From assembly GCA_021821305.1 (NCBI GenBank), contig JAKACP010000001.1, forward strand, positions 68,934-132,933: DNA of 64,000 nt, written 5' to 3'. The notes beneath the pieces are model-generated. The model was given only the letters and a program-made list of their open reading frames with translations. It was not told the origin of the DNA and did no database searches. Every line of letters starts with the position of its first letter. Within the stretch, counting starts at the first letter, position 1. Below, piece after piece: positions 17,033 through 63,311 of the stretch. The position numbers were made by a program, and so were the translations under genes. This stretch comes from a bacterium. Its GTDB lineage: Bacteria > Patescibacteriota > Minisyncoccia > Moranbacterales > UBA1568.

Positions 17033-17042
17033 GATAGACCGG

Positions 17043-18440: not shown

Positions 18441-18442
18441 AG

Positions 18443-19140: not shown

Positions 19141-19269
19141 CAGTGAATCCGCCAGCTGGCGGATGGCTTCCGTGAGGATAAGAAGGGCGGAGCGATGTTT
19201 CGCGAGCGCGCCCTTTTCTTTACACCGCCGCGATCCCATGTTAGGCTTGCTTCAGTTAAAAAGCGGCCC

Positions 19270-19803: not shown

Positions 19804-19830
19804 GATAATCCCCATCGAAATCATATCGTC

Positions 19831-21600: not shown

Positions 21601-21729
21601 CGGAAAACACAGGAACCCAAAGCACAAAATTCCAAACAAAGCCCAGCATACAAAACCGAAGCAGAAAACGTTTGTGTTTTTGGAAGTTCGTGTTCCGTTT
21701 GGATTGTTGTGTTCTGTGATTTGTGTTTT

Positions 21730-26954: not shown

Positions 26955-26964
26955 AGGCTTAAGC

Positions 26965-27618: not shown

Positions 27619-27658
27619 AGGAATCGTTCGTTTTTCTTTTCCGTATTATACACCGAAA

Positions 27659-28024: not shown

Positions 28025-28040
28025 ATCGTTGGTTCTCCGG

Positions 28041-30665: not shown

Positions 30666-30670
30666 AGGGG

Positions 30671-31360: not shown

Positions 31361-31397
31361 GCCGGTAAGATAAAATATGAACCTCGGATCGCGTGCG

Positions 31398-31796: not shown

Positions 31797-31799
31797 ACG

Positions 31800-33074
31800 C
31801 TATTCGTTCTTGAGATCGACGATCCGCCCCATATCCTCGTCGCCGCTTTTCCCATGCAGGCTCACCGGACGGATCTGAAACGGATTCATCTTCTGCGCGG
31901 GACTCGGTCCGGCCGGAGCGGCGTCCTTCGACTTGTCGAAAAACGATTCCCCGGACGGGATGGTTCCTCCCGACTGCTGCTTGATCGCGAATTTCTGGGA
32001 ACCTCCCTGTTCCGATTGGAGCGTGTGGTTCGATGAGAACGAGAACTGGTCATCCTGTCCCGCGGCGGGTTTCTTTTCCGGAGTGGGCTTGGTCTCGAGG
32101 CTCGTGAAGTGCATGCCCTTGCCGATGCGGAAACCGCTCTCCTGCGGGGCCGCCTGCGGCGCGGCCGGAGCCTGTGGCGCGACGGGCACGGGCGGCACCG
32201 CCCGCTTCGGAGCCTGCGGAGGGGTGAACGGCTTGGGGGCCGGAGCCGCGACCGGCGTCGACTTGAACGCTTCGAGAAGCGACTTCGGCTTCCCTTCGGC
32301 GGAGATCTTCTTTCCCGGGGTCGGGGCCTTTGGCGCGGCCTGGCCGTCCGTCACCGAAAACGACGGGAAGACGATCTCCATCTTCCGTACATCGATATCG
32401 ACGGGGACATTGTCCTCGATCGAGCGCAGCACGAGGTTGAGGCGCTCGCGCTCCTCGGATGAGAGGGATTTGCAGTTCGGAGAATTGAAGAGGAACTTCG
32501 CCCGCAGGACGGGATCGTGATACCCGACGCCGAGCTCGTCGCGATAGGAGCGGAGCCAGTTGACGAGGCTCGGGCGCACCGGCTCGGGCTGGCTCTTGAT
32601 GCGGATCTTTTCGCGGCTCAATTGCTGTTCCGCAAGTCGCGCGTACTTGCCGAGCGCCGCGAGGAGCGGGAGCTTTTCCGAGGAGACCGGAGCGGATTCT
32701 TCCGGAGCGGAAACCGTCTCCGGATCGGGCTGTACGGTGAGGACGTTTTTTTCGATGAATTCCGCGAGCTTCGCCTTGTCGGCTCCGGTAAACGAGGCGA
32801 TCTCTTCCGCGGCGGCCGCCACGGTCTTCTTGTTGAAAAAAAGTTCGCGAATGATACCGCTCATCCGGACGATATCCGCGCCTTTCACGGAAAAATCCCC
32901 CGCGAGCGAGCGGAGTCTGAGCGGAAGCGCCGAAGACATAAGCTTCTTCCGCGTTTCCGGCGGAAGCGCCTTGTACGTGCCCCATGCGGCGCGAAGCGAT
33001 GCTTCGGCGGACTCACCCTCGAAGGCGAGCATGGGGTAGTACCGCGCGTCGATTTCCTCTTGTGATACGGTCAT
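31800..33074 (-). CDS. hypothetical protein (424 aa) with a Pro/Ala-rich central region
   Basis: It is an operon member with no recognised family. Confidence 0.45.
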   Translation of the reverse strand: MTVSQEEIDARYYPMLAFEGESAEASLRAAWGTYKALPPETRKKLMSSALPLRLRSLAGDFSVKGADIVRMSGIIRELFFNKKTVAAAAEEIASFTGADKAKLAEFIEKNVLTVQPDPETVSAPEESAPVSSEKLPLLAALGKYARLAEQQLSREKIRIKSQPEPVRPSLVNWLRSYRDELGVGYHDPVLRAKFLFNSPNCKSLSSEERERLNLVLRSIEDNVPVDIDVRKMEIVFPSFSVTDGQAAPKAPTPGKKISAEGKPKSLLEAFKSTPVAAPAPKPFTPPQAPKRAVPPVPVAPQAPAAPQAAPQESGFRIGKGMHFTSLETKPTPEKKPAAGQDDQFSFSSNHTLQSEQGGSQKFAIKQQSGGTIPSGESFFDKSKDAAPAGPSPAQKMNPFQIRPVSLHGKSGDEDMGRIVDLKNE

Positions 33075-33077
33075 ATT

Positions 33078-35177
33078 TTACGTCGTTGGGTTTTGTTTTT
33101 CGGCATCGCGCGCCTGCTTCGCCGCCGCTATGTTCGTGTCGGTCATGATCTTTCTTTCGTTCCGCGGAGCGGATTGCGATTTCAGGAGCACGTTCGCCCA
33201 CTTCCCTTCATGCTGTGCGTTCGACGGCGATTTCACGAGCTCGTCCATCACGCTCTGCGCCCATTTCGGACTCGTCGTCGCGCGGTTCTCGGCATAGGTC
33301 ATGAAGTGCTTGTCATCGAATATCTCACCTTGCTTGACGATATCAGAGGCGCCCATCTTGCCCAACACTTCGGTGTAGGCACCCTGGTACGCGTCGGCTT
33401 CGCTCGTCCCCGGGGCGCGCTTGCTGACCTGGTAATCGACGATGACTTTGGTCTTCCCTTCCTTGCGGAGCTTCCCGTCGAGGGACTTCTTGAGAACAGC
33501 GTTTTCACCGGTAGCCTTGAACGCATCCGTGTCGAATGAGGACATCGCCGTTTCGTACTGCTTGGCGTCGAGCTTGAGCGCGTCGCCGCCCGCCTTCTCT
33601 ATGAGGGTCGATATCTCCTTGGTGTTGTCGCCGAGCGCCTGGAGCGCGTTGACGAAATCGTTCGCGCCCGTGAGCGCCTTCCTGTCGGCGAGCACCATGG
33701 CGGCGCCTCCGGCGGCTATCGGATCCTTGAAGCTTCCGTCGGCTTTCCTGTTTTCGGCACCTATCTGCTTGAGGAGTTCCGAATTGCTCACGTTCCCCTT
33801 CTTGAATTCATCCGCCTGTTCATACGTACGCTTCCTCGCGAGCTCCTTCTCGGCATTGATGTATCCCTTCCGACCACCCTTGAAGAACCCGGCATATTTC
33901 GCCTCGCGCGCTTCCTCCTTCGCGGTACCGACACCCGGAACGGCGACGCCCGCGAATTTTCCTGTCTGCGCGAAATTCTTCCATCCCGCCTGCGCGCCCT
34001 TGACGGCGGCCGGCCCCTGCCCGAACGTGCCCGCGCGGAATGCGCCTCTCGCCGATTTCCGCCCGGCCCACTTGGAGAATTTCTGAGCACTGGCCCCAAC
34101 CTCTCTGGCTCCGGCAATCCCAGAGTTTTGCGCTACGATTATAGACATCCAAATCATCACGATCGGCGCTATGACAGCGACCATCGCCGCGAGATAGGTC
34201 CCGCCCCCCGTAGCTGATGAGTTATTCGCGATAGTGGTCGGGTTTCCAATGCCTCCAGGCCCTGTAAATCCTTCCAAGAACTTCAATGAGACAAGCATCA
34301 TGAGCATCGCTGCCGGCCCGAAAAAAGCATACTTCAGGAGGTTGTCCCACCACTTGGTCGCATAGGAACGGAATCCGGGTATCACCATCCCCGCGAATCC
34401 GACGGAGGAGAAGATGATGAGTACGACGAGCATGAGGGAGCGGATGAGGAACAGGATCGCGAGTACGAGCAAGGAAACACCGAACAGGAACATGAAAATG
34501 ATTCCTACGAGAAGCTTGGTGGTGATCTGACTATCGCCCTTGATATCCGAGACTTTAAAATTCTCCTTCCCAAGAATGAGTTTTTCAAGATTTGACGTTC
34601 CCAAAAACCGCTTCGTGACATTCTCCGCCTTCGCATCCGCCGGATTACTGAATATGCTCTCCATGAAAAAATACATGGGAACGTTGGCGACATCGATGAC
34701 GAATCGGGCTATAGGGAAACTGAAGTTGACGAGAAGCGCCATGAGAAGCAATTTCCCGAGCGACTTCTTGTAGTTGAAAGAGTCGATCTGGAATATCGTC
34801 GCGAAAGCGATGAAGAGGAGAGTGAGTATGAAAAAAAGGTTGAAGAAGTCCCGCACCATCTGCCAGAGCAAATAGATGGCCGGCATCGTGAACATCGTGT
34901 TGAACGCAACCGGATCCACGGTAAGCCCCAAAAGCATCGCCGACCATGTCACTGGGTAGGAAACAAGTGTAAAAACAGCGTAAAGAATTATATTGATGAC
35001 GTAGAAAAAAGCATCACCAGCGGTATCAGTAACGAAACTGAAAAGCCCGGCGTTAGCTTGGTGTATATCGAAAAAGAATACGAAAAAGAATATCGATAGA
35101 AAAAAAGCCGAAGAAAATTTATTTATTTTCGTTTTTCTTGAAATCATAGCGCGAAGCTTTCGGTCGAAATATACCAT
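33078..35177 (-). CDS. large polytopic membrane protein, VirB6/PrgH/ConG-like T4SS channel component candidate
   Basis: The 699-aa product has many TM helices and a Gly/Ala-rich C-terminal region. Its stop overlaps the next gene. Confidence 0.5.
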   Translation of the reverse strand: MVYFDRKLRAMISRKTKINKFSSAFFLSIFFFVFFFDIHQANAGLFSFVTDTAGDAFFYVINIILYAVFTLVSYPVTWSAMLLGLTVDPVAFNTMFTMPAIYLLWQMVRDFFNLFFILTLLFIAFATIFQIDSFNYKKSLGKLLLMALLVNFSFPIARFVIDVANVPMYFFMESIFSNPADAKAENVTKRFLGTSNLEKLILGKENFKVSDIKGDSQITTKLLVGIIFMFLFGVSLLVLAILFLIRSLMLVVLIIFSSVGFAGMVIPGFRSYATKWWDNLLKYAFFGPAAMLMMLVSLKFLEGFTGPGGIGNPTTIANNSSATGGGTYLAAMVAVIAPIVMIWMSIIVAQNSGIAGAREVGASAQKFSKWAGRKSARGAFRAGTFGQGPAAVKGAQAGWKNFAQTGKFAGVAVPGVGTAKEEAREAKYAGFFKGGRKGYINAEKELARKRTYEQADEFKKGNVSNSELLKQIGAENRKADGSFKDPIAAGGAAMVLADRKALTGANDFVNALQALGDNTKEISTLIEKAGGDALKLDAKQYETAMSSFDTDAFKATGENAVLKKSLDGKLRKEGKTKVIVDYQVSKRAPGTSEADAYQGAYTEVLGKMGASDIVKQGEIFDDKHFMTYAENRATTSPKWAQSVMDELVKSPSNAQHEGKWANVLLKSQSAPRNERKIMTDTNIAAAKQARDAEKQNPTT

Positions 35178-35243
35178 AAATTAAGAAAAATAAAAAACCC
35201 CTTAAAAAATAAGAGGTTTAAGATATGGCCGAAAAATTAACGG

Positions 35244-35681
35244 CTATATATAGTTCACTTCATTTCCGGTTGAGGGATCCCAGTAAGCCACCCTCCCGTT
35301 CGAAGATTGAATGTCTATATCCATCAAATCGGTCGAATCAAGATGTGCGACGACTTCTCTTGCCACCGGTTTGATTTCGATGAATAAGAGAACCTCCCCA
35401 TCATCACCGGAAACACGAAGGGTGTCAGCAGTGATCTCTTGCTTGAGAAAAGCCTGACGAATCGACTCACGCTGTTGTTCCGCTGCGTTACGAGTGGCAA
35501 AGTGCATATAAACGAATCGGGCACCCGGCTTCAAGACAAGCTTGACTTTCCCAGAATCGAATATTGACGATTCAACTTCCCCGCTTTGAGAAGCGGTTTT
35601 CTCGTCACCCAGACATCCGGAAAGGGAAACGGCCAGGAACAATGCGGCAAAGGCCGCAAATACCGATTTGAATGCTTTCAT
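35244..35681 (-). CDS. hypothetical lipoprotein
   Basis: The internal start MKAFKSVFAAFAALFLAVSLSGC gives a signal peptide plus lipobox. Confidence 0.5.
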   Translation of the reverse strand: MKAFKSVFAAFAALFLAVSLSGCLGDEKTASQSGEVESSIFDSGKVKLVLKPGARFVYMHFATRNAAEQQRESIRQAFLKQEITADTLRVSGDDGEVLLFIEIKPVAREVVAHLDSTDLMDIDIQSSNGRVAYWDPSTGNEVNYI

Positions 35682-36016
35682 GACGGTCTCCTTTCGAGAG
35701 ATTTGAGATCCGAACGGATCAGGGGAACTACGGTTTTTAAAGAAACAAAGGCTTATATCCACTGAACTCCTCTTTTGTGGAGTATCTCTTTATAGCAAAT
35801 TTTACGGATTTTGTCAATACTCCGACAAGTCGGAAAAGCACCATACTCCCTTATACAAGCCTCCCTGCCGTTTTCTTCCTATCCCAAGAAATGGTCCTTT
35901 CCCACCCCGGGCATGCATCCTCGTATCGAGGATGCCAGAACTCGTCGATCGGATGATTGGAGACAAGCTCAATGGTCTGATATTTGAGACAAGAGAGAGA
36001 AAATCAAAGAGCCCCT

Positions 36017-36517
36017 TTAGAGATAGAAGATCTTTACAAGCTTTGGCAAATCACCCTTTGTTTTCTCACCTTTTTCTATACTTTCAAAAAGCTCTTGTGG
36101 AGTCATCCAAAAATACTCCGTATAATCGTCTGGATTGTAGTTTGGAGCTTGATCTGTTCGAATTTCATAAACATTCATGAACGCCGCTACTCCATCTTTT
36201 TCAGGTGTAAGGTGTCCCAGAAGTTTCCATGGGGTTTTATCTGCATCAATATTGAGTTCTTCACTCAACTCTCTTTTAAAGGATACTTCGTAACTTTCCC
36301 CACTCTCAACATGCCCGCCCATACTCATATCTAAGCATGAGGGAAAAATCCGCTTATGAGCACCCCGGCGAGGCAGCCAAAGCTTGCCCTCAGAGTTGAC
36401 GAGAAAGGCATTCACCACACGAAAATTCGACAAGCCCTCGGCATAGACTTCCGAGCGAAGCTTCCTGCCGATCACCTCGTCTTTTTCGTTTACTAAATCG
36501 AGATATTCATCATTCAT
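36017..36517 (-). CDS. NUDIX hydrolase
   Basis: The Nudix box is GGHVESGESYEVSFKRELSEELNI. Confidence 0.8.
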   Translation of the reverse strand: MNDEYLDLVNEKDEVIGRKLRSEVYAEGLSNFRVVNAFLVNSEGKLWLPRRGAHKRIFPSCLDMSMGGHVESGESYEVSFKRELSEELNIDADKTPWKLLGHLTPEKDGVAAFMNVYEIRTDQAPNYNPDDYTEYFWMTPQELFESIEKGEKTKGDLPKLVKIFYL

Positions 36518-36599
36518 ACGCCTAAGGCAAAGTATAAAAGAAAAAAAAGAAGCTGTCCATCATGCGATGAACAGCCTTATAGCTAGTAGCGACCTAGTA

Positions 36600-37124
36600 C
36601 TAGCTGCTCCTGAACTTCTCAGGAACGTCGTCCCAAGTAGCGAAGAGAGCGAGAACCTCATACTCAACTGGCCCCTTTGGACCATCGGATGATCCTGTGT
36701 CGCCAATGTGTAGACCCATGAGTGCTTGAGCCATCGGCGCGTTATAGGCGACGCGTTGCTGTGGGACATCCGTTTCGCCGTAGCCAACGATTTCCCAGAC
36801 AAACTCGTCTTCTTCGCCACTCACCTTGTAGTAACGATTCAGAAGCACGATAGATCCGAGCTGCACTCTTGTCGTATTACGCTTGTCGAAAGCAAACACC
36901 TGAGCACTTGCAATGAGGGCATTGAGACTAGCCACTTCTTGGGCCTTCCTCTTTTCATCCTGTTCCAACCTGTTGAAGTAGGGATTGTCATGCCATGTAT
37001 CGCCAGTAGCCGTATACGCCGTAGCTTTTTCCATCCGGAGTGCTTCCAGCTCTTCGTTCAACATATTCAGCCTCCCATTGAGAAGATCCAGCCCCGTCTT
37101 GCTTACATAAATGACGTTTGCCAT
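36600..37124 (-). CDS. GreA/GreB-family transcription elongation factor-like protein
   Basis: It has an N-terminal coiled-coil region and a C-terminal FKBP-like domain (PMAQALMGLHIGD...GPVEYEVLAL). Confidence 0.55.
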   Translation of the reverse strand: MANVIYVSKTGLDLLNGRLNMLNEELEALRMEKATAYTATGDTWHDNPYFNRLEQDEKRKAQEVASLNALIASAQVFAFDKRNTTRVQLGSIVLLNRYYKVSGEEDEFVWEIVGYGETDVPQQRVAYNAPMAQALMGLHIGDTGSSDGPKGPVEYEVLALFATWDDVPEKFRSS

Positions 37125-37134
37125 TGCATACTCC

Positions 37135-37872
37135 TTAAATACCCATTTGGTAACGAAGATTCTCGATTTTTTCCACGATTTTCTGACGAGTCATTGCCGG
37201 AGACGGGAGCGTAGCTTGTTCAGACCCCAAGCTCCTTTCCGAAAGCAAGTCATTAGTCACCCAGCCGACATTTTCGTGGGTAATCACCAAAGTGGCAACA
37301 AACTGATCATTGGGCGTATCCACACGGTGCAACACCTCCCCCTCGATTGAATAGATGCTGCCTTCGGTAACACGCTCAGTCCCTATGCTGACGAGCTTGG
37401 TCTTGCCTCGGCTTTCTACATCGTAGTGCTCCTTGCTGCCACGAGCGTAATACCGGTAGTGGAAGTACTCTTCTCCCTCTTCGTCTGGAGTAGCAAACCG
37501 GTAGCTGTGATTGTCGGCGTATCCTACCAAAACTGCCGATGAGAAATCCCAACGATGATTATGGACATTCTGTCGAGGCCTCTTGGCATTCGGGATGGCA
37601 AGTGGATGCCACAAATGCAAGCGCATCTTCATTTTCGTCTCAGAATCCTGGAAGAGGACGATCTTGTCGAATCCATTGTCATGGGCATACGAATCCGTGT
37701 GATGGTGAGCCGAGTGCAGCGTGCCGTAGATGAACTCGTCAAGCATCGCTGCCAGAACGCTTGGCTGGACAAGCCGCTGCAGCTCTTCCGTAACCGATAC
37801 TGCTTTCGCTTTGCGCTCAAGAAGAGCTAGGCGTAGGAATCTCTCCTCCCACTCGGGGTTATAGAGTGTCAT
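37135..37872 (-). CDS. hypothetical protein (245 aa), His-rich, possible cupin-like fold
   Basis: It has the HLWHP...NVHNHRWDF motifs. No confident family is recognised. Confidence 0.45.
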   Translation of the reverse strand: MTLYNPEWEERFLRLALLERKAKAVSVTEELQRLVQPSVLAAMLDEFIYGTLHSAHHHTDSYAHDNGFDKIVLFQDSETKMKMRLHLWHPLAIPNAKRPRQNVHNHRWDFSSAVLVGYADNHSYRFATPDEEGEEYFHYRYYARGSKEHYDVESRGKTKLVSIGTERVTEGSIYSIEGEVLHRVDTPNDQFVATLVITHENVGWVTNDLLSERSLGSEQATLPSPAMTRQKIVEKIENLRYQMGI

Positions 37873-38420
37873 GATTTATCTCCTCTTAGATTGAGACTAG
37901 CCAAGATGAGGTCTGTGGTTTCCTCGACCGTGGCATCACTCGTGTCTATCACACTGTGGCCGAAAGTCTTGAAAATCCTGTCGGCCTGTCGTTGCAATGG
38001 CAGGTTCAGCTCGAGATCGTTTACATTCTTTCGTGAACGAAGTCGCTTCTTTCTCACCTCTTCCCTTGCTGTCAATATGAATGTGTAATCAGGCATGACA
38101 AGCTGGGTTATCTCGAAGAGTGACTGGATTTGAGTATCCATGGCTCCATGAAATGCAAAGGTTGAATAGATGTAGCGGTCGCACACGACACCAGAGGTTT
38201 TGAGTATTTCTCCGATCTTCTTCGAGTCGTGCTGTGTTGCCGCGCGATAGAAGAAGTAACGCGCCAGTGGCTCGACATCAGTATCGACAATGGAACGGGC
38301 TGATGAGAATAGACCGCCGGGACTCTTGTAGTACTGGTAGCCTAGCCTTTCTGCCAAACGCTTTCCGACCTCTGTTTTTCCCACTGCATCTACCCCTTCT
38401 ATACAGATGAAGATAGTCAT
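37869..38420 (-). CDS. thymidylate (dTMP) kinase-like P-loop kinase
   Basis: The P-loop is ICIEGVDAVGKTE and the DRY motif is VCDRYIYSTFAFHG. Confidence 0.6.
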   Translation of the reverse strand: MTIFICIEGVDAVGKTEVGKRLAERLGYQYYKSPGGLFSSARSIVDTDVEPLARYFFYRAATQHDSKKIGEILKTSGVVCDRYIYSTFAFHGAMDTQIQSLFEITQLVMPDYTFILTAREEVRKKRLRSRKNVNDLELNLPLQRQADRIFKTFGHSVIDTSDATVEETTDLILASLNLRGDKS

Positions 38421-38810
38421 GCTCTACTCCTTGTAGGGTTGCGAGTTGTTAAGTTACTAAACAAATTACAATATCATAATCCCTATTACTTGCCAATACC
38501 CCGTAATGTTTCAATTACCTTTGCATCACCGTGATACGCTGACCTGTTTAATGCGAAGCTATGGCCTATACAACGAATTCGAAGGCGCCGAAGGTGCGAT
38601 GGGAAGCGGTGAAGATAGTTTCAGTTGGAGGTGTGGCACAAAATAGAAGGGTAAAGTAAATATCCTTTCACCAGCAATGGTGAAACGCGTTTCGAGCCTT
38701 TGTGTGAAAGAAAAGGTTTTCTGATTTGACCGTTTCTTTGACCCAAACACGAAAGTTACTAGCTCCTTCAAGAGCTTAATGCAAACTTTATATGTCATTA
38801 CAAAATACGC

Positions 38811-38850
38811 CAGACACATAAAAACCCAGTCGCCAATGAAGGCAACTGGG
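38811..38850 (-). terminator. rho-independent terminator downstream of the GNAT gene
   Basis: On the minus strand: CCCAGTTGCCTTCATTGGCGACTGGG followed by TTTTTATG. Confidence 0.4.
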
Positions 38851-38870
38851 TAACTGAGGGAGCGATACAG

Positions 38871-39395
38871 TCATGTTCGATAAATCCGATAGGCAACTAT
38901 GGTGTGATCTTCCCCTCTGGCGTTCTGGGAGATGAATTCTTCTTCCTCCGAGATTCCGCCAAGCTTTTCCGGAATACGACGACTGGGAACATTGTCCTTA
39001 TGAACCGGATAGTATAGGTACTCATACTCGATATGCTCGTCGGCCCATCGCTTAAGAGCCGCGACGATCTCGAATCCGAAACCGTTGTTCCATGCTGATT
39101 CCTTGAGCCATAGCCCCGGCTCGGGTCGCGTCCAGAGGTGATGCAACCCCGTGCATCCGATGAATTCCTCGGAGTTTTTTGACACCGCGACAAATTGAAG
39201 TTCTCCCCCTCGCCCCATACTGTCCAGCGAACCGGAAATGAACGCATCGGTATCAGCTATGTTTCCGGTCGGCTGTGGCCAAGTATACCGCGCCACCCGA
39301 TCTGTGAATGCCTGAAAAATTTCTTGCCGGTATTTCGCAGAAATCGGCACCAGAAGGAGCCGCTCTGTCTCGATTGTCACACTCCGTAAATCCAT
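38871..39395 (-). CDS. GNAT-family N-acetyltransferase (RimJ/RimL-like)
   Basis: The start is at the internal MDLRSV. The acetyl-CoA-binding region is ELQFVAVSKNSEEFIGCTGL...FGFEIVAAL. Confidence 0.65.
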   Translation of the reverse strand: MDLRSVTIETERLLLVPISAKYRQEIFQAFTDRVARYTWPQPTGNIADTDAFISGSLDSMGRGGELQFVAVSKNSEEFIGCTGLHHLWTRPEPGLWLKESAWNNGFGFEIVAALKRWADEHIEYEYLYYPVHKDNVPSRRIPEKLGGISEEEEFISQNARGEDHTIVAYRIYRT

Positions 39396-39517
39396 GATTT
39401 CGTCCCTTATAACATTTTGAATGAGCTTGTCACCGGGCATAATTCCTAATGACAGACCATCTTATACCATAAATTCCATCATGTAAATAAGATCGGTCAG
39501 TTCAGTTGTCAAAGGAA

Positions 39518-39542
39518 AATGAAAAGGCGGCGTTTCCGCCGC
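39518..39542 (-). terminator. hairpin terminator; one of two identical 25-nt copies flanking the metallophosphoesterase gene
   Basis: On the minus strand: gcggcggaaacgccgcc followed by ttttcatt. Confidence 0.45.
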
Positions 39543-39676
39543 GTCTCCCAACTTCACTTGAGCCCTGTTATCCGAAGCAAGAAAGGACCTGCTCTTTTTT
39601 CTGCTTCTTTTCAAATGATGACGCTCGCGAAAAAGGCAGGCCCGGCTTTCAAAAAAGCGAAGGTTCAACAGTTCTC

Positions 39677-40441
39677 TCAGTGGCTTTCCAAATGACGTAA
39701 TACAACGCTCCCGTCGGAAAAAAAGTCAAAAAGAGACATCTTCCCCTCGTTCACCTTGTAAGCGATATTGCACGCGGAAACCGTACCGCGTGCTTTTTTT
39801 ATCCCCCGCGGACCATGATGAGCATGCCCGCTCAGGGCCAAGTGTGGATTTACTTGTTCGATAGCATCGCCCAGTCTCGAGCTGCCAAGAATGACATAGA
39901 GTTCTTTCGGTTCTCCTTCTATCGTTTCTTCGAAGGCCGCCCAGTGTGTAAGGGTGATCTTAAAATCAGGAGCCGCATTCTCCATTTGGTATAAGGCTGT
40001 TTTCAGTTTTTCCACTTCGCGATCTTCTTCTTCCACGAAAGACTTTGTCGCGCGCTCTCCACGGCTCACGATTCTGTGCGGGGCGAAGCCACCGCCATAC
40101 CCTTTCGCTCCGCCAATACCGACTTTCTTCCCATTCAGTTCATATTCGGCATACTCGCCATCAAGCACCTTGATAGACGGGTTCCCCAAAAGCATCTCTT
40201 TTATCCCATCCACATCATCGGCATCATAATCATGATTACCAAAGACCACGATTATCGGAACTTGTACACCGGAGACAAGATCAAGAAAGTGTTCCACTTC
40301 TTTCTTTTTCCCGTCATTCATATCGCCACCGATGATAAGCAGATCCGCAGTATCGTTTACATGATCAAAAAAGTCCTTTTGGATAGGATATTTGTTGACA
40401 TGAATGTCGCTTACAGCCGCAATGGAAAATACCGGTTTCAT
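39677..40441 (-). CDS. calcineurin-like metallophosphoesterase
   Basis: MPE motifs are present (VSDIHV, GGDMND, GNHDY, SGHAHH). Confidence 0.75.
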   Translation of the reverse strand: MKPVFSIAAVSDIHVNKYPIQKDFFDHVNDTADLLIIGGDMNDGKKKEVEHFLDLVSGVQVPIIVVFGNHDYDADDVDGIKEMLLGNPSIKVLDGEYAEYELNGKKVGIGGAKGYGGGFAPHRIVSRGERATKSFVEEEDREVEKLKTALYQMENAAPDFKITLTHWAAFEETIEGEPKELYVILGSSRLGDAIEQVNPHLALSGHAHHGPRGIKKARGTVSACNIAYKVNEGKMSLFDFFSDGSVVLRHLESH

Positions 40442-40479
40442 GCTTTAAGACTACCACAATGTTCGGATATGATACTAGA

Positions 40480-40504
40480 TAATGAAAAGGCGGCGTTTCC
40501 GCCG
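40480..40504 (-). terminator. hairpin terminator; identical 25-nt copy of 39518-39542
   Basis: The sequence aatgaaaaggcggcgtttccgccgc is identical at both sites. Confidence 0.45.
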
Positions 40505-40590: not shown

Positions 40591-41694
40591 CTAGTACACG
40601 TATCCCTTGATCGAGCGGCTCGAGACCGCGATCACGCGCTTGTTCACTTTGCCCCATCCCTTGTAGTTCATTTCCGAGACGGTGATAGTGCCGCCGGAGA
40701 CCTTTTCCACGAGCGCGACGTGGCCGTAGTAGGCGTTGTCGGTCGTGACGACGATCGCGCCGACCGCCGGGGTCTTACCGGTCTTGTAGCCCATGGCGCG
40801 GGCGTTGTAGAGCCAGGTGCCGGCATTGCCGCCCCATGGGACATAGCGCTTCTGCGCGATATACCAGGTACAGTAGCCGTATGGGAACCGGTGCCCGGTT
40901 CCCGCCTTGCCCTCGAGTTTCTTGCCGACGCCGGATACGTCCGTGATATTCCCCGATCCCGAGGAGGTGGCGTACTGGCGGAGACCGATACCGGTCGTCG
41001 GCTCCGGCTTGGGCATTTCCTTGTATCCGCCCGGGATGACGATCGATTCGCCGGACACGAGCTCGCCGTTCGCCGGAAGCCCGTTGAACGATATGATCGT
41101 GGCCCGGTCGGCCTTGTATTTGGAAGCGATGGCGTCGATGGTCTCGCCGCTCGCCACCTTGTGCGAGAGTCCGGCGACCGGCAGGATGAATATCTGATCT
41201 CCGGGTTTGATGGAGTCGACATTGTCGAGGTCGTTCGCCCAGAGGATGGTGTTGACGGTGATCTTGTGCTTGGCCGCGATGCCGGACACCGTGTCGCCGT
41301 CCTTGACCGTATAGACGCTCACGCCGCCTTCCTCTTCCGGATCCTTGGTGATCGAAGCGCCGGCTTCCGCGGAAAGAAGAGCTCCTTCCTGGAACGCTAC
41401 GAGCTCGGCTTGGTCGTCGGCCGCCTTGTCAGCGGGGTCGATGGTGGCGACAGCGGTCGCGAGCGGAGCGAGGGAAAGGTTGGTCGTCGCCGTCTGCTCG
41501 GACGCGAAAGACTTCCGAGGGAGCTCGGACGTGGCGGAAACGGTGTCACGGAAAGACCCGAACACCGGGCTCTCGGAGCCCTGTTCCTGGGTGACATTCG
41601 TGACTGATACGAGAAGGGCGCTCGAGACTACCAGGGAAAAAGCGCCATAATTGCGGAATGGTTCGACGAGACGTCCGCCGAAACCGCCCTTCAC
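40591..41694 (-). CDS. secreted peptidoglycan hydrolase with two LysM domains and a C-terminal CHAP domain
   Basis: The LysM repeats are YTVKDGDTVSGIAAKHKITVNTILWAN and HKVASGETIDAIASKYKADRATIISFN. The CHAP Cys motif is YGYCTWY, with His in YYGHVALV. Confidence 0.8.
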   Translation of the reverse strand: MKGGFGGRLVEPFRNYGAFSLVVSSALLVSVTNVTQEQGSESPVFGSFRDTVSATSELPRKSFASEQTATTNLSLAPLATAVATIDPADKAADDQAELVAFQEGALLSAEAGASITKDPEEEGGVSVYTVKDGDTVSGIAAKHKITVNTILWANDLDNVDSIKPGDQIFILPVAGLSHKVASGETIDAIASKYKADRATIISFNGLPANGELVSGESIVIPGGYKEMPKPEPTTGIGLRQYATSSGSGNITDVSGVGKKLEGKAGTGHRFPYGYCTWYIAQKRYVPWGGNAGTWLYNARAMGYKTGKTPAVGAIVVTTDNAYYGHVALVEKVSGGTITVSEMNYKGWGKVNKRVIAVSSRSIKGYVY

Positions 41695-42072: not shown

Positions 42073-43014
42073 ATGACCTCCATGACCCCCCTCCGATCCC
42101 TCATGAAACGGTTCTCGAGCCACCTCGAGATCGAGCTTGGCCGTGCGCCGAGGACGATATCGAACTATGAGCGGTCGCTCGGGAAGTTTTTCGACTGGAG
42201 CGGAGCGAAAACCCCCGAAGACATCACCTTCGACCGGATCCGGGAGTTCCGCATCTTCCTCAACCGGTCGGAAAACGGCCGCGGCGAGCCGCTCCGGAAA
42301 ACGACGCAGATCTATCATATCGTCGTCCTGCGCTCGTTCCTCAAGTTCCTGGCCAAGGAGGATATCGTCACCGTCCCCGCGGAAAAGATCGAGATCGGCA
42401 GGGTCCCGGACCGCCAGGTCGACTTCCTCGAGCTCGACGAGGTGATGCGCCTCATCGAGGCGGCCGACGGCGACAGCCTCCGCGCGCGGCGGGACCGCGC
42501 CATACTCGAGCTCCTCTTCTCGGCCGGCCTCCGCGTCTCCGAACTGACGAGTCTCGACCGCTCGTCGGTCAACCTCAACAAGGGCGAGTTCAGCGTCCGC
42601 GGCAAGGGCTCCAAGCTCCGGGTCGTCTTCCTCTCCGACGACGCGCGCCGTGCGCTCGAACGCTACCTCGACAAACGCACCGACATGGACCCGGCCATCT
42701 TCATCTCCCTCCCGAAGAAGGGGCTGGGCAAGGAACGCAAGAACGGAAGCCTCCGGCTCACGGAGCGGAGCGTCCAGCGCATCGTGAAACGCGCGGCGGT
42801 GAAGGCGGGCATCGTCAAGGACGTGCACCCGCACACGCTCCGGCACAGTTTCGCGACGGACCTCCTCCAGGGCGGCGCCGACATCCGCGCGGTACAGGCG
42901 ATGCTCGGCCACTCATCCATCACCACCACCCAGATCTACACCCACGTCACCAACGAACGCCTCCGCGAGATCCACGAGAAATTCCACGGGAAAAAGAAAA
43001 GGACGGGCACATGA
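42073..43014 (+). CDS. tyrosine site-specific recombinase, XerC/XerD family
   Basis: The catalytic RHRY motifs are present (LRVSEL, HTLRHSFATDLLQGGADIRAVQAMLGHSSITTTQIYTHV). Confidence 0.8.
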   Translation: MTSMTPLRSLMKRFSSHLEIELGRAPRTISNYERSLGKFFDWSGAKTPEDITFDRIREFRIFLNRSENGRGEPLRKTTQIYHIVVLRSFLKFLAKEDIVTVPAEKIEIGRVPDRQVDFLELDEVMRLIEAADGDSLRARRDRAILELLFSAGLRVSELTSLDRSSVNLNKGEFSVRGKGSKLRVVFLSDDARRALERYLDKRTDMDPAIFISLPKKGLGKERKNGSLRLTERSVQRIVKRAAVKAGIVKDVHPHTLRHSFATDLLQGGADIRAVQAMLGHSSITTTQIYTHVTNERLREIHEKFHGKKKRTGT

Positions 43015-58232: not shown

Positions 58233-59378
58233 ATGTCACTCACTCCCTCCGAGCAATTCTCCGAACTTGCGAGAAAAAGCGAAAATCCGATCATCCTCCT
58301 GCCGAGCTATCCCAGCAAGGAAACGCTCGCATCGGCCTTCGCGCTCGCCGGATTCCTTTCCAAGCTCGGAAAATCGGTCACCCTCGCCGGAGACGAGCTT
58401 TCCTCGCGCGTAGGCGACCTCCCGTTCCTCGAGCTGGAGGGGTCGATACTCGATTCCCTGTCCGGGACGCACGATTTCGTGCTCGCGTTCAATACCAAAT
58501 ACAACAAGATCCTTTCCATACGGAGCGAACAGGAAGGGGAGGAGTTCCGCATCTCGCTCACGCCCGAGAAGGGATCGATCGACCCTCGTGACTTCTCCTT
58601 CATCCCGGCGCAGTTCAAATACGACGTCGCCTTCGTCGTGGGCGCACCGGACAAGGAAAGCCTGGGAAAACTCTATGAGGATCATCCCGACATCTTCTAC
58701 GAGATCCCGATCGTGAATATCGACAACAAGCCGGAGAACGAGAACTTCGGACAACTGAACATGGTCGATCTGACCGCTTCGTGCGTCGGCGACATCCTGT
58801 TCGAGACGTTTTCCGCGATCGACGCGAAGGCGATCGACGAGAGGGTGGCCGAAGCGCTCCTCACCGCCATCATCGCCGCCACCGACAGCTTCCAGCGGAA
58901 AAACACCACCCCGAAGGCGCTCCAGACCGCGTCGAAGCTGATCGAACTCGGTGCGGACCGCGAGAAGATCGTACTTTCGCTCTACAAGACCCAGCCCCTG
59001 CACCTGCTCAAGCTCTGGGGGCGGCTCATGTCGAACCTGAAATGGGAGGAATCGCTCCGTCTCGCGTACGTGTCGGCGAGCATCGAGGATTTCGTGCAGA
59101 GCCGGTCGGACATCCGGGATATCCCGGCCGTGCTCGACAAGATCCGCGGCAACCTCTCTTCCGGCGCGTTCTTCGTCGTCCTCTCGCCGGAAACCGACGG
59201 CACCTCGCGCGCGATACTCAAGGCATCGAACAACGGGAAGGTCATATCCTTGGCGGAATCCATCGACGGGGCCCAGCTCCACGGCGACACCGTATCGTTT
59301 CCCCTGCTCGCCCCAGCGGGCGAGACTGCCGAACTCATGCTCATCGAGACGATACGCGGCGCGCTGGAGGGCAAGTGA
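58233..59378 (+). CDS. DHH-family phosphoesterase (NrnA-like)
   Basis: The DHH and DHHA1 architecture is present. The start is at the internal MSLTPSE. Confidence 0.65.
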   Translation: MSLTPSEQFSELARKSENPIILLPSYPSKETLASAFALAGFLSKLGKSVTLAGDELSSRVGDLPFLELEGSILDSLSGTHDFVLAFNTKYNKILSIRSEQEGEEFRISLTPEKGSIDPRDFSFIPAQFKYDVAFVVGAPDKESLGKLYEDHPDIFYEIPIVNIDNKPENENFGQLNMVDLTASCVGDILFETFSAIDAKAIDERVAEALLTAIIAATDSFQRKNTTPKALQTASKLIELGADREKIVLSLYKTQPLHLLKLWGRLMSNLKWEESLRLAYVSASIEDFVQSRSDIRDIPAVLDKIRGNLSSGAFFVVLSPETDGTSRAILKASNNGKVISLAESIDGAQLHGDTVSFPLLAPAGETAELMLIETIRGALEGK

Positions 59379-59456
59379 GTTTAACTGAAATCGTTTTTGC
59401 GGTACAATGGGGGCGATAGCCCCTATTTTTCTTCGTCAAAACAGAAACGAAATCTT

Positions 59457-62400
59457 ATGGTCAAAGTCATTCAACAATCATCCCGCGACTGGCTCGAGGA
59501 GAAGGCGGAGAAAACCAAGGCGGTGCTCGGACAGATGGAGTCGCAGTCGAAGGAAGAATTGGCCGCCAGGCTCGCGGCGAGTCTCGATCTCCCGTATATC
59601 GACCTCCAGATCTTCCCGCCCAACGCCGCCGATGTCGCGCTCGTTCCCGAAGAGGTCGCCCGGAAACATCGGCTGGCGATTTTCGAAAAGGTCGGCGACA
59701 GGATACGGGTGGCGTTCGCCGACCCGGAGGATACAGAAGCGGACGCCTTCATCGGCGCGTTCGCAGGGGAAAACCGCCTGAAGCCGGAAAAATACGTCGC
59801 CTCGAACCAATCGCTCGAGCGGGTGTGGCTCCTCTATAGGACCGCTCCGGTGCTCGAGAATCTCGATCTCTGGCGGGTATCGCTCGAAGGCGACGACCTC
59901 AAGAAATTCGAGGAGGATTTCGGTGAGCTCCTGAAATTGAAGGAAGCGTCCGATATCCCCGTGTCCCGGACGATCGAGATCATCATGGCCGGCGCGAACA
60001 AGCTCCGCGCGAGCGACATCCATATCGAGCCCGGAGACGGCACGGTCCGTCTCCGTTACCGTATCGACGGCATGCTCCAGGACATCGGCACGCTCTCGCA
60101 GGATGTCTACCGGCTGACGCTCTCGCGCATCAAGATGCTCGCGCACATGAAGATCAATATCCGCGACCGGGCGCAGGACGGCCATTTCGGCATCGAGCTC
60201 GACGGGGAAAAGGTCGACCTGCGCGTGAACATCATCCCGGGCAACCACGGGGAGAACATCAACATGCGTATCCTGAACGCTGGCAGTGTCCTCCTCGATA
60301 TCGAGTCACTCGGTATCCGCGGCGAGACCCGGGAAAAGATCCTGCGCGAGCTGCACAAACCGCACGGCATGATACTCAACACCGGTCCCACGGGATCCGG
60401 TAAGACGACCACGCTCTACAGTCTGCTCAACATCATCAACAAGTCGGACGTGAAGATCATCACCATCGAGGACCCGATCGAGTACCAGATACCCGGCATC
60501 GTCCAGACGGAAGTGTCCAAGGACAAGAGCTACACCTTCGGCTCCGCGCTCCGGGCGGTGGTCCGACAGGACCCGGACGTCGTCCTCGTCGGCGAGATCC
60601 GGGACGAGGAGACCGCCGATGTGGCCGTCAACGCCGCGATGACCGGACATCTCCTTCTCTCGACCATACACGCCAACACGGCCCCCGGTGCCATCCCTCG
60701 TCTCCTCGAAATGGGTATCCGCCCGTCGCTCATCGCCTCATCGATCAACATCGTGATCGGACAGCGGCTCGTCCGACGGCTCTGCGAGCACTGCAAGGAA
60801 TCCTACGTCCCCGCCGAGGAGACGGTCCGGAACCTCAAGCGGCTCCTCTCGATCATCTCGCCGAAAGCGGATATCGCCATGCCTGAAACGGTAGACCGGC
60901 TCTGGAGAGCCAAGGGCTGCGCACAATGCAATTTCAGCGGATACCACGGCCGCATCGGCATCTACGAGGTGTTCTCCATCACCAAACGCATCGAGAGCAT
61001 CATCCTCGACCTCGGAACGGAAAAGGACGTCGCCAAGGCCGCCATCGAGGACGGCATGGTCACCATGCTGCAAGACGGCATACTGAAGTCCGTCGAGGGC
61101 CTCACGACCATGGACGAAGTCTGGCGCGCCACCGGTCAGGAGGAATTCCTCGAGGAATTCTATCGGGACGTCACCCACTCGACGCTCTCGTCGACTTCCG
61201 CGGTCGATGCCGCGTTTTCCGGAAAAGCGGCGGAGGTGGCCGGGGACCCGGCCGCGTTTTCCGCCCTCATCGGATCCGTACCGCCGGAAAACATATTCGA
61301 GACGCTGCTTTCGGGAGCGGTCGCGATGAAGGCGACCGACATACAGCTCGAACCGAACGAGCGTTCGGTCTCGGTCCGGTTCCGCAAGAACGGCATCCTC
61401 GAATCGGTCGGTGAGATCAGAAGCGAGCATCTCCAACCGGCGATATCCGAGATCAAGCTCCTCGCCGGAATGGAATCGGGAAGCCGGCCCGGAGTGCAGG
61501 AAGGGCGCTTCTCGAGCACGATCGGAAACGCCGAAGGCGAGGCGCGCGAGATCGATGTCCGCGTCGCCATCGTGCTCGGCGGATACGGCGAGACCGTCAT
61601 GATCAAGATCATGGCGGAAGAAAAGGAGATCCGCCTCGAGAACCTCGGACTCCGCAAGGAACACCTCGAAAAGATACTCTCGTTCTGCAAGCGCTCATAC
61701 GGCATGTTCATCGCCTCCGGCCCTGACGGCTCCGGCAAGACGACGCTCCTCTACAATCTGCTCCGGTCGCTCCATTCGCCGGAGACCAAGATCGTGACCG
61801 TCGAGGATCCCATCGAGCGCCGCATGCCGGGGATCCTCCAGACGCAGGTGGACGAAGCCCGGGAGTATTCCTTTCCGGAGGCGATCACATCCCTCCTCCG
61901 ACAGGGACCGAACATCCTCCTCGCAAGCGAAATCCGCAATGCCGAGACGGCCCAATCCCTCGCCGAAGCGGCGCTGACCGGGCACCTGACCTTCTCGAGC
62001 ATGCAGGGCAACAGCGCCTCGCTTGCCGCGACGCGCCTCTCCGGATTCGGCATCCGCGGCGAAGATTTCGCCAATGCGGGCATGACGATCGCCGGCGTCC
62101 GGCTCGTCCGGAAACTCTGCGAATCCTGTAAGGAAAAAATCACGCCGGACGGAAAAGCCGAGGCACTCATCGGAAAGGTCCTTTCCGGCATATCCCCGGC
62201 ATCGGGCGTCAGGATCCCGAAGAAATATTCCATCTACGCAAGCAAAGGATGCGAGCAGTGCGGAGGATCCGGATTCTCGGGGCAGATCATGCTCTCGGAG
62301 ATACTCCCGGTGACGCCGGGTATCGCCGAAATACTCGCCACCTCCCCGATAGCCACGACGGTGGAGGGGAAGGCCAAGGAAGAAGGCATGCTCACGCTCA

Positions 62401-62474
62401 CCGAAGACGGCATACTCGCGGCCCTCGAGGGCGCCACGACGCTCTCCGAGGTGGAGCGGGTCACGGAAGAATAG
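59457..62474 (+). CDS. tandem-duplicated GspE/PilB-type secretion ATPase (two complete N-domain plus ATPase modules fused, ~1005 aa)
   Basis: Module 1 has Walker A GPTGSGKTTT, the Asp box, the His box TGHLLLSTIHAN and a tetracysteine. Module 2 has GPDGSGKTTL, a degenerate His box (TGHLTFSSMQGN) and a second CxxC...CxxC. The start is chosen at MVKVIQ. Confidence 0.8.
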   Translation: MVKVIQQSSRDWLEEKAEKTKAVLGQMESQSKEELAARLAASLDLPYIDLQIFPPNAADVALVPEEVARKHRLAIFEKVGDRIRVAFADPEDTEADAFIGAFAGENRLKPEKYVASNQSLERVWLLYRTAPVLENLDLWRVSLEGDDLKKFEEDFGELLKLKEASDIPVSRTIEIIMAGANKLRASDIHIEPGDGTVRLRYRIDGMLQDIGTLSQDVYRLTLSRIKMLAHMKINIRDRAQDGHFGIELDGEKVDLRVNIIPGNHGENINMRILNAGSVLLDIESLGIRGETREKILRELHKPHGMILNTGPTGSGKTTTLYSLLNIINKSDVKIITIEDPIEYQIPGIVQTEVSKDKSYTFGSALRAVVRQDPDVVLVGEIRDEETADVAVNAAMTGHLLLSTIHANTAPGAIPRLLEMGIRPSLIASSINIVIGQRLVRRLCEHCKESYVPAEETVRNLKRLLSIISPKADIAMPETVDRLWRAKGCAQCNFSGYHGRIGIYEVFSITKRIESIILDLGTEKDVAKAAIEDGMVTMLQDGILKSVEGLTTMDEVWRATGQEEFLEEFYRDVTHSTLSSTSAVDAAFSGKAAEVAGDPAAFSALIGSVPPENIFETLLSGAVAMKATDIQLEPNERSVSVRFRKNGILESVGEIRSEHLQPAISEIKLLAGMESGSRPGVQEGRFSSTIGNAEGEAREIDVRVAIVLGGYGETVMIKIMAEEKEIRLENLGLRKEHLEKILSFCKRSYGMFIASGPDGSGKTTLLYNLLRSLHSPETKIVTVEDPIERRMPGILQTQVDEAREYSFPEAITSLLRQGPNILLASEIRNAETAQSLAEAALTGHLTFSSMQGNSASLAATRLSGFGIRGEDFANAGMTIAGVRLVRKLCESCKEKITPDGKAEALIGKVLSGISPASGVRIPKKYSIYASKGCEQCGGSGFSGQIMLSEILPVTPGIAEILATSPIATTVEGKAKEEGMLTLTEDGILAALEGATTLSEVERVTEE

Positions 62475-62490: not shown

Positions 62491-62517
62491 AAAACCCCGG
62501 GATGTCCCGGGGTTTTT
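62491..62517. terminator. bidirectional rho-independent terminator
   Basis: aaaaccccgggatgtcccggggttttt. Confidence 0.55.
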
Positions 62518-62912
62518 CATTCGTGGCAACGGATGCATCGGCATCCTTTCGGTTCTATGTATTCCCGGAAATATTCCTCGCCATAGTCGTAGGCGAGCTC
62601 CTCCCCCTCCGAGATCTTCCGCTTGGCGACGATGAATATACGTCCCTCGTCGTTCACGGCTTCGCAGTTGGGCTTGCAGGAATGGTTGATATACCGCGCC
62701 GTGTTCCAGCGAGGGCTCCCGTCGATATCCCATTCGTGATCGACGCGGAAGATATAGAGATTGTCGCGTCCGTGCGATCCGCGGACCCGTTCACCGACAT
62801 ATTCGATGACCGTCTCGCCGCGCGAGAAGTCCCGCGCCGCGTAGAGTCCGAGTCCGGCCCTCGATCGGCGGACCATGACGTCGTTCGTCCGTTCGGAGTT
62901 CTTTTTGGCCAT
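62517..62912 (-). CDS. SET-domain protein (putative protein-lysine methyltransferase) with post-SET Cys cluster
   Basis: The motifs are GLGLYAARDF, NHSCKPNC, ELAYDYG and the C-terminal CRCIRC. The start is at the internal MAKKNSE. Confidence 0.7.
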   Translation of the reverse strand: MAKKNSERTNDVMVRRSRAGLGLYAARDFSRGETVIEYVGERVRGSHGRDNLYIFRVDHEWDIDGSPRWNTARYINHSCKPNCEAVNDEGRIFIVAKRKISEGEELAYDYGEEYFREYIEPKGCRCIRCHE

Positions 62913-63311
62913 ATGGTTTTCATCCAACAATTTCCGATGATACGTGATTTTCGTGAGTCTGTCCACGTATCCCGCGCGGAAAGGCTCCGAAAAATGAAAA
63001 GGGACTCCCAAGGAGGGAGTCCCTTCGTCTCAAAGAACCGTTCAGCTGCAGGCAATCCGAAACATCGAGGACGTTTCGGGAAGGAGCAGTGTCGAGGTGA
63101 AGGAGAGCCGAAACCCCCCAACCCATATCTGGACGTCTCGCACTTACCGATACCCGCGGAAAACCGCGAGGAACGGAAAGTGCGAGGAAAAGCTCCCGGT
63201 CTTGAGGACAAAAGATAGTAATCCCCAATCTGCCTGCAGGTGAACGATTCCTTTTCCGATTCTCTAAAAAAACCGCGCGCTTTCTCACGCGACCCGACAT
63301 CTTAGCACGAC

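Follow-up and report, generated by a model that had tools for sequence, protein, structure and literature searches.

Characterised ATPases of the PilB/GspE type, such as PilB (5TSG/5TSH), T. thermophilus PilF (5OIU) and V. cholerae EpsE (1P9R), are homohexamers whose chains each hold a single module composed of an N2D and a C-terminal domain (CTD). The PilB ring consists of six packing units, in each of which an N2D is packed against the CTD of the adjacent subunit, and the motor has been modelled as a hexamer with two-fold symmetry that fires at opposite sites simultaneously, the firing pattern moving round all six sites (PMC5424180). Many bacteria of the Candidate Phyla Radiation (CPR) have components of type IV pili, which are often co-localised (PMC6744442). 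Among these bacteria, Saccharibacteria run two pilus systems with two PilB paralogues, PilB1 and PilB2; PilB2 is described as an ordinary assembly ATPase, with no mention of a tandem layout, that is encoded with PilC2, PilM2, PilN2 and PilO2, and the second locus lies beside recombination genes (PMC11623550). Here we describe a PilB/GspE-like ATPase gene in a 64,000-nucleotide (nt) stretch of a Moranbacterales genome, hereafter the window (GenBank assembly GCA_021821305.1, contig JAKACP010000001.1, positions 68,934 to 132,933 of the forward strand). As in Saccharibacteria, it is a second PilB paralogue in a CPR bacterium. Its product differs from the characterised proteins in carrying two modules in one chain, and from PilB2 both in this tandem layout and in being encoded away from platform genes. 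In the clade to which the window belongs, the substitution pattern indicates that the second module has changed its function rather than being lost as a domain.

The open reading frame spans 59397..62474 on the + strand. The gene itself occupies 59457..62474, from an ATG that is also the start annotated in public assemblies to a TAG stop codon at 62472-62474, and encodes 1005 amino acids (aa); an identical protein (P0001) is present on three public contigs. The chain is laid out as N1, a first N2D-CTD module, a conserved 47-aa linker and a second N2D-CTD module, all features being on the + strand. The N1 domain (MshEN/GSPII-like, aa 43-121, 59583..59819) is matched by Pfam PF05157 in a single stretch (E = 2e-10). 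It is followed by the N2D of module 1 (aa 166-285, 59952..60311), which was delimited by alignment to PilB structures and carries H243 (nt 60183-60185) and R256, and by a canonical CTD (aa 286-560, 60312..61136) with Walker A, Asp box, Walker B with its Glu, His box and tetracysteine. The first helix of the linker (aa 561-607, 61137..61277; QEEFLEEFY...) is conserved family-wide, the consensus being GQTEFLEEIYEKLM, and the predicted local distance difference test score (pLDDT) of the AlphaFold2 model is low at 572-580. Module 2 comprises an N2D (aa 608-730, 61278..61646) that keeps both Arg fingers, R684 (nt 61506-61508) and R702, and a CTD (aa 731-1005, 61647..62471) in which the tetracysteine is intact and the nucleotide site is altered, according to the comparison of motifs and conserved columns. 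An initial annotation, made from the sequence alone, had described a single 1005-aa chain of two PilB/GspE modules with Walker A, Asp boxes, Walker B and tetracysteine in both halves; two T2SSE stretches were found, and all of these motifs were located where it had put them. It had also assigned an N-domain-like region to both halves. The N1 domain is, however, present in module 1 only, the alignment between the modules beginning at aa 166 of the first and aa 607 of the second.

The Walker A motif reads GPTGSGKT in module 1 (aa 310, nt 60384-60407) and GPDGSGKT in module 2 (aa 755, nt 61719-61742), and the Asp boxes are IEDPIEY and VEDPIER, respectively. Walker B with the catalytic Glu is DPDVVLVGEIRD in module 1 (nt 60570-60605, VGEIRD core) and GPNILLASEIRN in module 2 (nt 61905-61940, ASEIRN core). 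Both histidines (H398 and H405) are found in the His box of module 1, TGHLLLSTIHAN (nt 60642-60677); that of module 2, TGHLTFSSMQGN (nt 61977-62012), keeps H843 and has Q850 (nt 62004-62006) in place of the second. Each module has two CxxC pairs, at 60783-60794 and 60918-60929 in module 1 and at 62118-62129 and 62250-62261 in module 2, and their cysteines (C443/C446/C488/C491 and C888/C891/C932/C935) are invariant across the family alignment.

Pfam T2SSE (PF00437) matches the chain in two stretches (E = 7e-192, 637 bits against a cut-off of 24.9), the NCBIfam PilB and GspE models likewise give two matching stretches each, and each half matches both models separately. The full chain scores 748.7 against TIGR02538 (type IVa PilB, cut-off 675.65) and 745.5 against TIGR02533 (GspE, cut-off 630.25), passes that count double because the scores of the two modules sum. 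In the AlphaFold2 model of the full chain (mean pLDDT 79.5), the modules superpose on the cores of G. metallireducens PilB and T. thermophilus PilF with a template-modelling (TM) score of 0.92 and a root-mean-square deviation of 2.3-2.8 Å. Each module thus has in common with PilB/GspE the N2D and CTD fold, Walker A, the atypical Walker B with its Glu, the Asp box, the His box and the tetracysteine, and module 1 also the N1 domain. Its predicted fold, its motifs and its zinc site place the protein in the PilT/VirB11-like superfamily and, within that, in the PilB/GspE clade.

The tandem architecture is real but rare, and is confined to Patescibacteria. The initial annotation had suggested looking for the same fusion in other genomes. 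When 5.8 billion proteins were searched, the full query was covered at 46-100% identity by no fewer than 120 of the clusters formed at 90% identity, with lengths of 980-1044 aa; these come from NCBI, JGI, ENA and Logan, and the named ones are Candidatus Moranbacteria, Moraniibacteriota or Patescibacteria. An exhaustive HMMER scan over 1.84 billion representatives at 50% identity gave 15,069 T2SSE matches below 1e-30, of which about 13 are tandem representatives (978-1018 aa) with two Walker A motifs each. A scan of species-representative genomes identified the tandem gene in 16 Moraniibacteriota-type genomes, including the complete chromosomes CP175956.1 and CP064994.1, and more distant tandems of about 40% identity, which we call group B, occur in Falkowbacteria and other Patescibacteria. 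No published description of a tandem PilB or GspE was found in literature searches, and the database names of the tandem sequences are generic, for instance "GspE/PulE family protein". Many records of metagenome-assembled genomes (MAGs) with the gene and its synteny (L008, L009, L016-L018, L021, L023, L026-L031 and others) are titled "uncultured Bdellovibrionales" or "uncultured Gammaproteobacteria", probably mislabels. The tandem gene of CP064994.1 (L050) is frameshifted at approximately 11214-11317, inside the CTD of module 1, through either a sequencing error or pseudogene formation.

The initial annotation had itself raised the alternative that the fusion is an artefact, produced by the collapse of a tandem duplication or by a sequencing error that merged two adjoining genes. 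No support for this was found, and even the L050 frameshift sits within module 1 and not between the modules. The two halves align over 399 aa at only 38% identity (E = 3e-95), so that they are homologous yet anciently diverged and cannot be a collapsed repeat. Furthermore, the frame is uninterrupted in more than 120 clusters from the four sources and in complete genomes, the linker is conserved, and the full length is under purifying selection. Because the architecture is conserved across independent assemblies, an artefact is excluded for practical purposes, its probability being negligible.

In neighbour-joining trees built on the module cores of groups A and B, the module-1 and module-2 sequences fall into separate clades, with 77% bootstrap support for the monophyly of all module-2 sequences. 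Since the separation holds across both groups, one old duplication and fusion is indicated. The gene is genuine and vertically inherited in Moraniibacteriota (Patescibacteria/CPR), and its fusion is old. In two further proteins, P0127 and P0128, each module has its nearest relative in the other module of its own chain (57% and 74% identity, respectively); they are independent, younger tandems, and the fusion of PilB modules therefore arose more than once in Patescibacteria. A protein of 1460 aa from a 77-kb JGI contig (P0007) has three modules and contains three copies each of the Walker A motif and the His box. Identity between its modules 2 and 3 is 59%, and homologous linkers join module 1 to module 2 and module 2 to module 3, which shows that the three-module protein is genuine. 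Module number has also decreased. At the identical syntenic position (DHH-PilB-RuvB), 10 Moraniibacteriota genomes (L033, L034, L037, L039, L040, L042, L043, L045, L046 and L047) have a single-module gene that branches inside the module-1 clade of the tandems, with bootstrap support of 86% there and of 100% for the wider clade, and downstream of it those 10 genomes have no remnant of module 2; nesting and absence of a remnant together indicate that module 2 was lost secondarily. Judging from these sequences, module 2 has met three fates in the family: it is canonical, remodelled as in the window, or lost.

The degeneracy of module 2, which the initial annotation had noted in this protein, is not a trait of the fusion family: in an alignment of 119 tandem relatives, module 2 is canonical (GPTGSGKT, GEIRD, both His) in 113. 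A degenerate module 2 as a feature of the whole family was thus rejected, being found in only six of them, and P0131 and P0132, which at first looked degenerate, keep the His. The substitutions T757D, Y788R/Q, G824S, D828N/E, H850Q and T851G occur only in the window clade, P0001-P0006, and in the corresponding genomes L008, L009 and L014. In order to measure the extent of the change, we took the columns conserved to at least 95% across the remaining 113 proteins and counted those changed in at least five of the six clade members. Module 2 has 28 such changes in 123 conserved columns (9 of 34 in the N2D and 19 of 89 in the CTD), against none in 136 for module 1 (34 in the N2D and 102 in the CTD). 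Sequence identity agrees with this: between the clade and the other tandems, the module-1 N2D and CTD are 60% and 64% identical, compared with 64% and 72% among the others, and the module-2 N2D and CTD are 32% and 45% identical, compared with 61% and 65%. The ratio of nonsynonymous to synonymous substitution rates (dN/dS) was obtained by comparing the window with L006 and L007, relatives of 91% and 86% identity; it is 0.06-0.17 for module 1, 0.15-0.20 for module 2 (0.11-0.15 for its CTD) and 0.25-0.44 for the linker. These values show that module 2 is maintained and not decaying, and a decaying pseudo-domain was rejected on the same ratio together with the fixation of the substitutions across the clade. 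The pattern seen in the alignments is that of a burst of change in the nucleotide site of module 2 followed by purifying selection, which indicates a change of function and not the loss of a domain.

Several of the changed residues can be placed on the structure of G. metallireducens PilB. In that protein R271 and R286 serve as the arginine fingers of the N2D, acting on the nucleotide in the CTD of their own chain, and both are said to be completely conserved in the PilT/VirB11-like family; Mg is coordinated by the Asp-box residue E357; the His box comprises T411, H413 and H420, the last of which coordinates the gamma-phosphate; and T327 in Walker A makes a backbone contact with T411 of the adjacent packing unit (PMC5424180). 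In our alignment, R271 corresponds to H243 in module 1 and R684 in module 2, R286 to R256 and R702, T327 to T312 and D757, and H420 to H405 and Q850. The absence of the second His-box histidine from module 2 reported by the initial annotation is therefore confirmed, and because Q850 aligns with H420 the "missing catalytic His" is the gamma-phosphate-coordinating one; the inactivity of module 2, which that annotation considered likely, is an inference. All 119 aligned proteins carry both R684 and R702. In module 1, R256 is invariant and the first finger is His in 115 of the 119 tandems, as it also is (QDGH instead of the "invariant" QDGR) in all 10 single-module syntenic relatives. The window protein therefore departs from PilB/GspE in having a His first finger in module 1 and a module 2 that has no N1 domain and, in the clade, an altered nucleotide site; two traits described as universal are absent, the first Arg finger from module 1 and the second His from module 2. 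We considered complementary degeneracy, in which the two modules would need each other because each lacks one of these residues, and rejected it on account of His243 in the 10 single-module relatives. Since these share the substitution, His243 characterises the lineage and is tolerated in a homomeric ring.

Directly upstream and co-directional with the ATPase gene lies a gene for a 381-aa protein of the DHH/DHHA1 (NrnA-like) fold (58233..59378, +), which ends 78 nt before the ATG. The assignment rests on aligned motifs and on matches at fold level, which are weak (28.6 bits against NrnA, where the cut-off is 350, and E = 3e-10 against TM1595). Its catalytic motifs are degenerate, DHH having become DNK (nt 58722-58730) and DxD (DGD) having become SKE, and they are degenerate in 28 of 30 orthologues; the protein is probably a non-catalytic DHH-fold pseudo-enzyme. 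Speculatively, it may be a binding partner of the ATPase. The DHH-like gene is directly upstream of the ATPase gene in most of approximately 30 Moraniibacteriota-type loci, including single-module ones; none was detected upstream of the tandem gene in L016, L017 and L020. Most group-A loci have the order TsaE(-), DHH-like(+), ATPase(+), then RuvB, YebC and RuvC, with PolA and HolA nearby, and the TsaE/DHH-like/ATPase/RuvB order persists at identities as low as 41% and where the ATPase is a single-module derivative. The initial annotation had considered the ATPase gene monocistronic because the genes upstream on the opposite strand are polA and tsaE. These two genes are indeed there, but the co-directional DHH-like gene stands directly upstream. 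An intergenic element (59381..59435, +) consists of a promoter-like TTAACT-16-TACAAT (59381-59408, found by consensus scan) overlapping a hairpin with a U-run (59406-59435; -17.2 kcal/mol, z = -3.2). Given the promoter-like site and the hairpin, the ATPase gene may have its own transcript.

The relation of the tandem gene to the canonical pilus is best seen in L020 (JAQTRS010000008.1, a Moraniibacteriota MAG), where it lies 3-10 kb from a canonical type IV pilus operon of CPR type (16060-22901, -). This operon encodes a PilO-like protein, PilB, a response-regulator receiver located between pilB and pilT, a PilT-like protein, PilC and three pilins. The operon PilB has 591 aa with MshEN and T2SSE domains, QDGR and an intact His box; its nearest relatives are PilBs encoded beside PilC in other CPR phyla, and it has at least 118 close clusters, of which the source-named ones are almost all Moranbacteria or Moraniibacteriota. 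Because this operon carries its own PilB, the tandem ATPase is an additional paralogue and not the extension motor of the operon. To judge from these relatives, the window genome would have a canonical pilus operon as well. A second filament motor has a precedent in the PilB1 and PilB2 of Saccharibacteria.

The simplest assembly for the tandem protein is a ring of three chains with alternating modules, since PilB rings are six N2D:CTD packing units. Three chains would thus give one ring of six modules, in which module 1, canonical and strongly constrained, would be the ATP-hydrolysing engine. In the window clade the nucleotide pocket of module 2 was remodelled and then fixed: the P-loop T became D, the G that precedes the catalytic Glu became S, and Gln took the place of the His that coordinates the gamma-phosphate. 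The module would probably be slow or non-hydrolysing, possibly still nucleotide-binding, and would act as a structural or regulatory partner in the manner of alpha in F1 alpha3-beta3. Functionally, the symmetry of this ring would be three-fold and not two-fold. The numbers of modules found in the family, 1, 2 and 3, are all divisors of six and so fit an in-plane six-module ring; two chains of the three-module P0007 would also supply six. By homology, the ATPase probably drives the assembly of a type IV filament or of a second such system, possibly using a PilC-type platform encoded elsewhere, and possibly together with the DHH-like partner. As a whole, this combination of a tandem motor, a three-chain alternating ring, an impaired module 2 and a role in a type IV filament is in our view the best explanation, and we judge the chances that it is right or wrong to be about even.

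A number of observations weigh against it. When the halves were aligned separately to the PilB and GspE models, as the initial annotation had proposed, each matched both and each remained under the equivalog cut-offs, with 480.7 (TIGR02538) and 462.2 (TIGR02533) for module 1 and 272.8 and 289.2 for module 2. Prediction of the full-chain structure, likewise proposed there, supports the modules but not the geometry between them: the single-chain predicted TM score (pTM) is 0.51 for the full chain and 0.62 for the CTD1-linker-N2D2 segment, with no confident docking of N2D2 on CTD1, and this check of a packing unit in cis was set aside as uninformative. The supposed engine, module 1, has a His as its first Arg finger, a change that is evidently tolerated, as the single-module relatives share it. 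Module 2 retains Lys761, Thr762, Glu825, Glu783, Glu787, His843 and both Arg fingers, and may still hydrolyse ATP. It is by homology that the tandem ATPase is linked to a pilus. PilC is directly downstream of PilB in 30 single-module loci of other bacteria, whereas no pilC, pilM or pilin gene adjoins any tandem gene except in L020, where PilC belongs to the operon with its own PilB; nor is there a T2SSF/PilC, PilM/N/O or pilin gene within the window. The group-B tandems have no pilus genes in an operon with them, only a pilin-like gene 1 kb away in L026. In this respect too the tandem gene departs from the PilB/GspE pattern, being a paralogue of the operon PilB that is not beside pilC.

Different geometries and activities can be proposed for the same chain. 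Type II AAA+ proteins (p97, NSF, ClpB) and KaiC, which belong to different families, also have two ATPase modules per chain, and there the modules stack as two rings; in tandem P-loop ATPases one tier is often catalytically weak. Following this model, six chains could form a stacked double ring, with the module-1 ring coaxial with a module-2 ring that would be an assembly or regulatory tier. The failure of AlphaFold to dock N2D2 on CTD1 with confidence (pTM 0.62) would fit such an arrangement. Self-contained rings also predict that the N2D and CTD of module 2 change jointly while module 1 remains unchanged, as was found, although this co-variation is expected anyway when one active site is shared in cis. 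What holds PilB rings together is the N2D(n):CTD(n+1) packing unit, and one ring face must meet the membrane platform (PMC5424180, PMC10191384), so that a second tier has no known partner. With module numbers of 1, 2 and 3 fitting an in-plane ring of six, we consider stacking unlikely. It is also conceivable that the substitutions only tune the site of module 2, in which case the protein would amount to two PilB subunits joined covalently, and all six sites of a ring would fire. Gln is able to form a hydrogen bond with the gamma-phosphate, purifying selection acts on module 2, which is fully canonical in 113 of 119 relatives, and even in the window clade its Walker A Lys, catalytic Glu, Asp-box Glu, first His and Arg fingers are invariant. 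On the other hand, at least seven substitutions are clustered in four nucleotide-site motifs of module 2 and fixed in the clade, with none in module 1, and in PilT-like ATPases both ATPase activity and function are disrupted when these motifs are mutated (PMC5424180); an acidic residue within the P-loop would also be unusual. Activity of both modules is thus a serious contender that we nevertheless find rather unlikely.

The role in a type IV filament can be questioned as well. The paralogue and its DHH-like partner might constitute a separate machine, for example for the uptake or processing of nucleic acids, tied to polA, ruvA/B/C and holA. The order TsaE, DHH-like, ATPase ... RuvB, YebC, RuvC is conserved to 41% identity and also with single-module genes, PilC is not nearby, the same lineage has a canonical pilus operon with its own PilB, and the second type IV pilus locus of Saccharibacteria is itself beside recA/recX (PMC11623550). 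However, the neighbours are housekeeping genes whose order may persist for unrelated reasons, the DHH-like protein has lost most of its catalytic residues, and the group-B tandems do not have this synteny. Every hallmark of the PilB/GspE clade is present, including the zinc motif and the N1 domain, and a function unconnected with a pilus seems to us distinctly improbable. Two other candidates were discarded: a known defence system, for which PADLOC returned weak P-loop noise only, and a tie between the tandem ATPase and the type IV secretion system (T4SS) genes of the window, which is unsupported, these being of the VirB4/PrgI/VirB2-like monoderm type and 17-45 kb away. Monoderm-type T4SS are typically not known to have a VirB11-type ATPase. 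Such systems have been described in Patescibacteria, with VirB11 mentioned once, for one atypical Gram-negative-type cluster (PMC12102498).

The T4SS-like set of the window spans 14593-17032, 24162-35177 and 40591-41694, all on the - strand. It includes three VirB2-like T4SS_pilin genes (14593-17032), a VirB4-like gene (28041-30665), a PrgI/VirB3-like gene (31398-31796) and a LysM-CHAP hydrolase gene (40591-41694), and several large open reading frames (944, 699 and 423 aa) have no Pfam match. An island of low G+C content (47-48%, compared with about 59% elsewhere) covers approximately 34000-40500 and encodes, in small genes, GreA/GreB-like, thymidylate-kinase-like, GNAT and metallophosphoesterase proteins; it has T4SS-type genes to one side and a tyrosine recombinase gene (42073-43014) to the other, an arrangement suggestive of a mobile element that has integrated. 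Downstream of the ATPase gene, the strong terminator noted by the initial annotation was found as a hairpin at 62495..62517 (CCCCGGG-ATGT-CCCGGGG then T5, with an A-run before it; -21.4 kcal/mol, z = -4.0), between the ATPase gene and a convergent SET-domain (lysine methyltransferase-like) gene (62517-63011, -). The two genes have this terminator in common, and the SET-domain gene keeps this position in the closer relatives L006-L014. At the 3' end of the group-B ATPase genes, a Metallophos_2 phosphoesterase gene is contiguous or overlapping (12930-13427 in L024 and 12894-13526 in L026), a neighbour of phosphoesterase fold that differs from the DHH-like one of group A.

Returning to the three-chain alternating ring, its nearest analogue would be the alpha3-beta3 (A3B3) ring of F1/V1, in which six homologous P-loop modules, derived by duplication, alternate between catalytic and non-catalytic nucleotide-binding. 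F1/V1 belong to a different ASCE family and their alpha and beta are separate polypeptides, and the alternation is so far only proposed for the protein described here. Engineered, covalently linked pseudo-hexamers of ClpX, with defined active and inactive positions, have been used to test sequential against probabilistic firing. They are artificial and AAA+, and the window protein would be a natural equivalent among PilT/VirB11-like ATPases. In its boldest form, the proposal is a natural covalent alpha3-beta3-like PilB motor in which only the three module-1 sites hydrolyse, the module-2 sites are non-catalytic nucleotide-binding spacers and firing is three-fold (OCOCOC-type), and which forms, with its pseudo-DHH partner, an undescribed type IV filament-related machine; we put this forward tentatively, as rather improbable in all its parts together.

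If the three-chain ring is true, opposite positions would be of different kinds and, with module 2 impaired in hydrolysis, the canonical PilB cycle could therefore not run as described. Three-fold firing, if true, would mean that PilB-type motors can run without the proposed two-fold rotary cycle. The platform protein PilC is internally duplicated and has been proposed to be a trimer (PMC10191384). A three-fold duplicated motor, if true, would mirror this proposed trimer. The family, with its single-module, canonical tandem, remodelled tandem and three-module members, is a natural graded series for testing the number of active sites and symmetry. Patescibacteria depend on pili for their host-attached lifestyle, and Moraniibacteriota carry, outside the pilus operon, a second PilB-type ATPase that is mostly paired with a DHH-like pseudo-enzyme.

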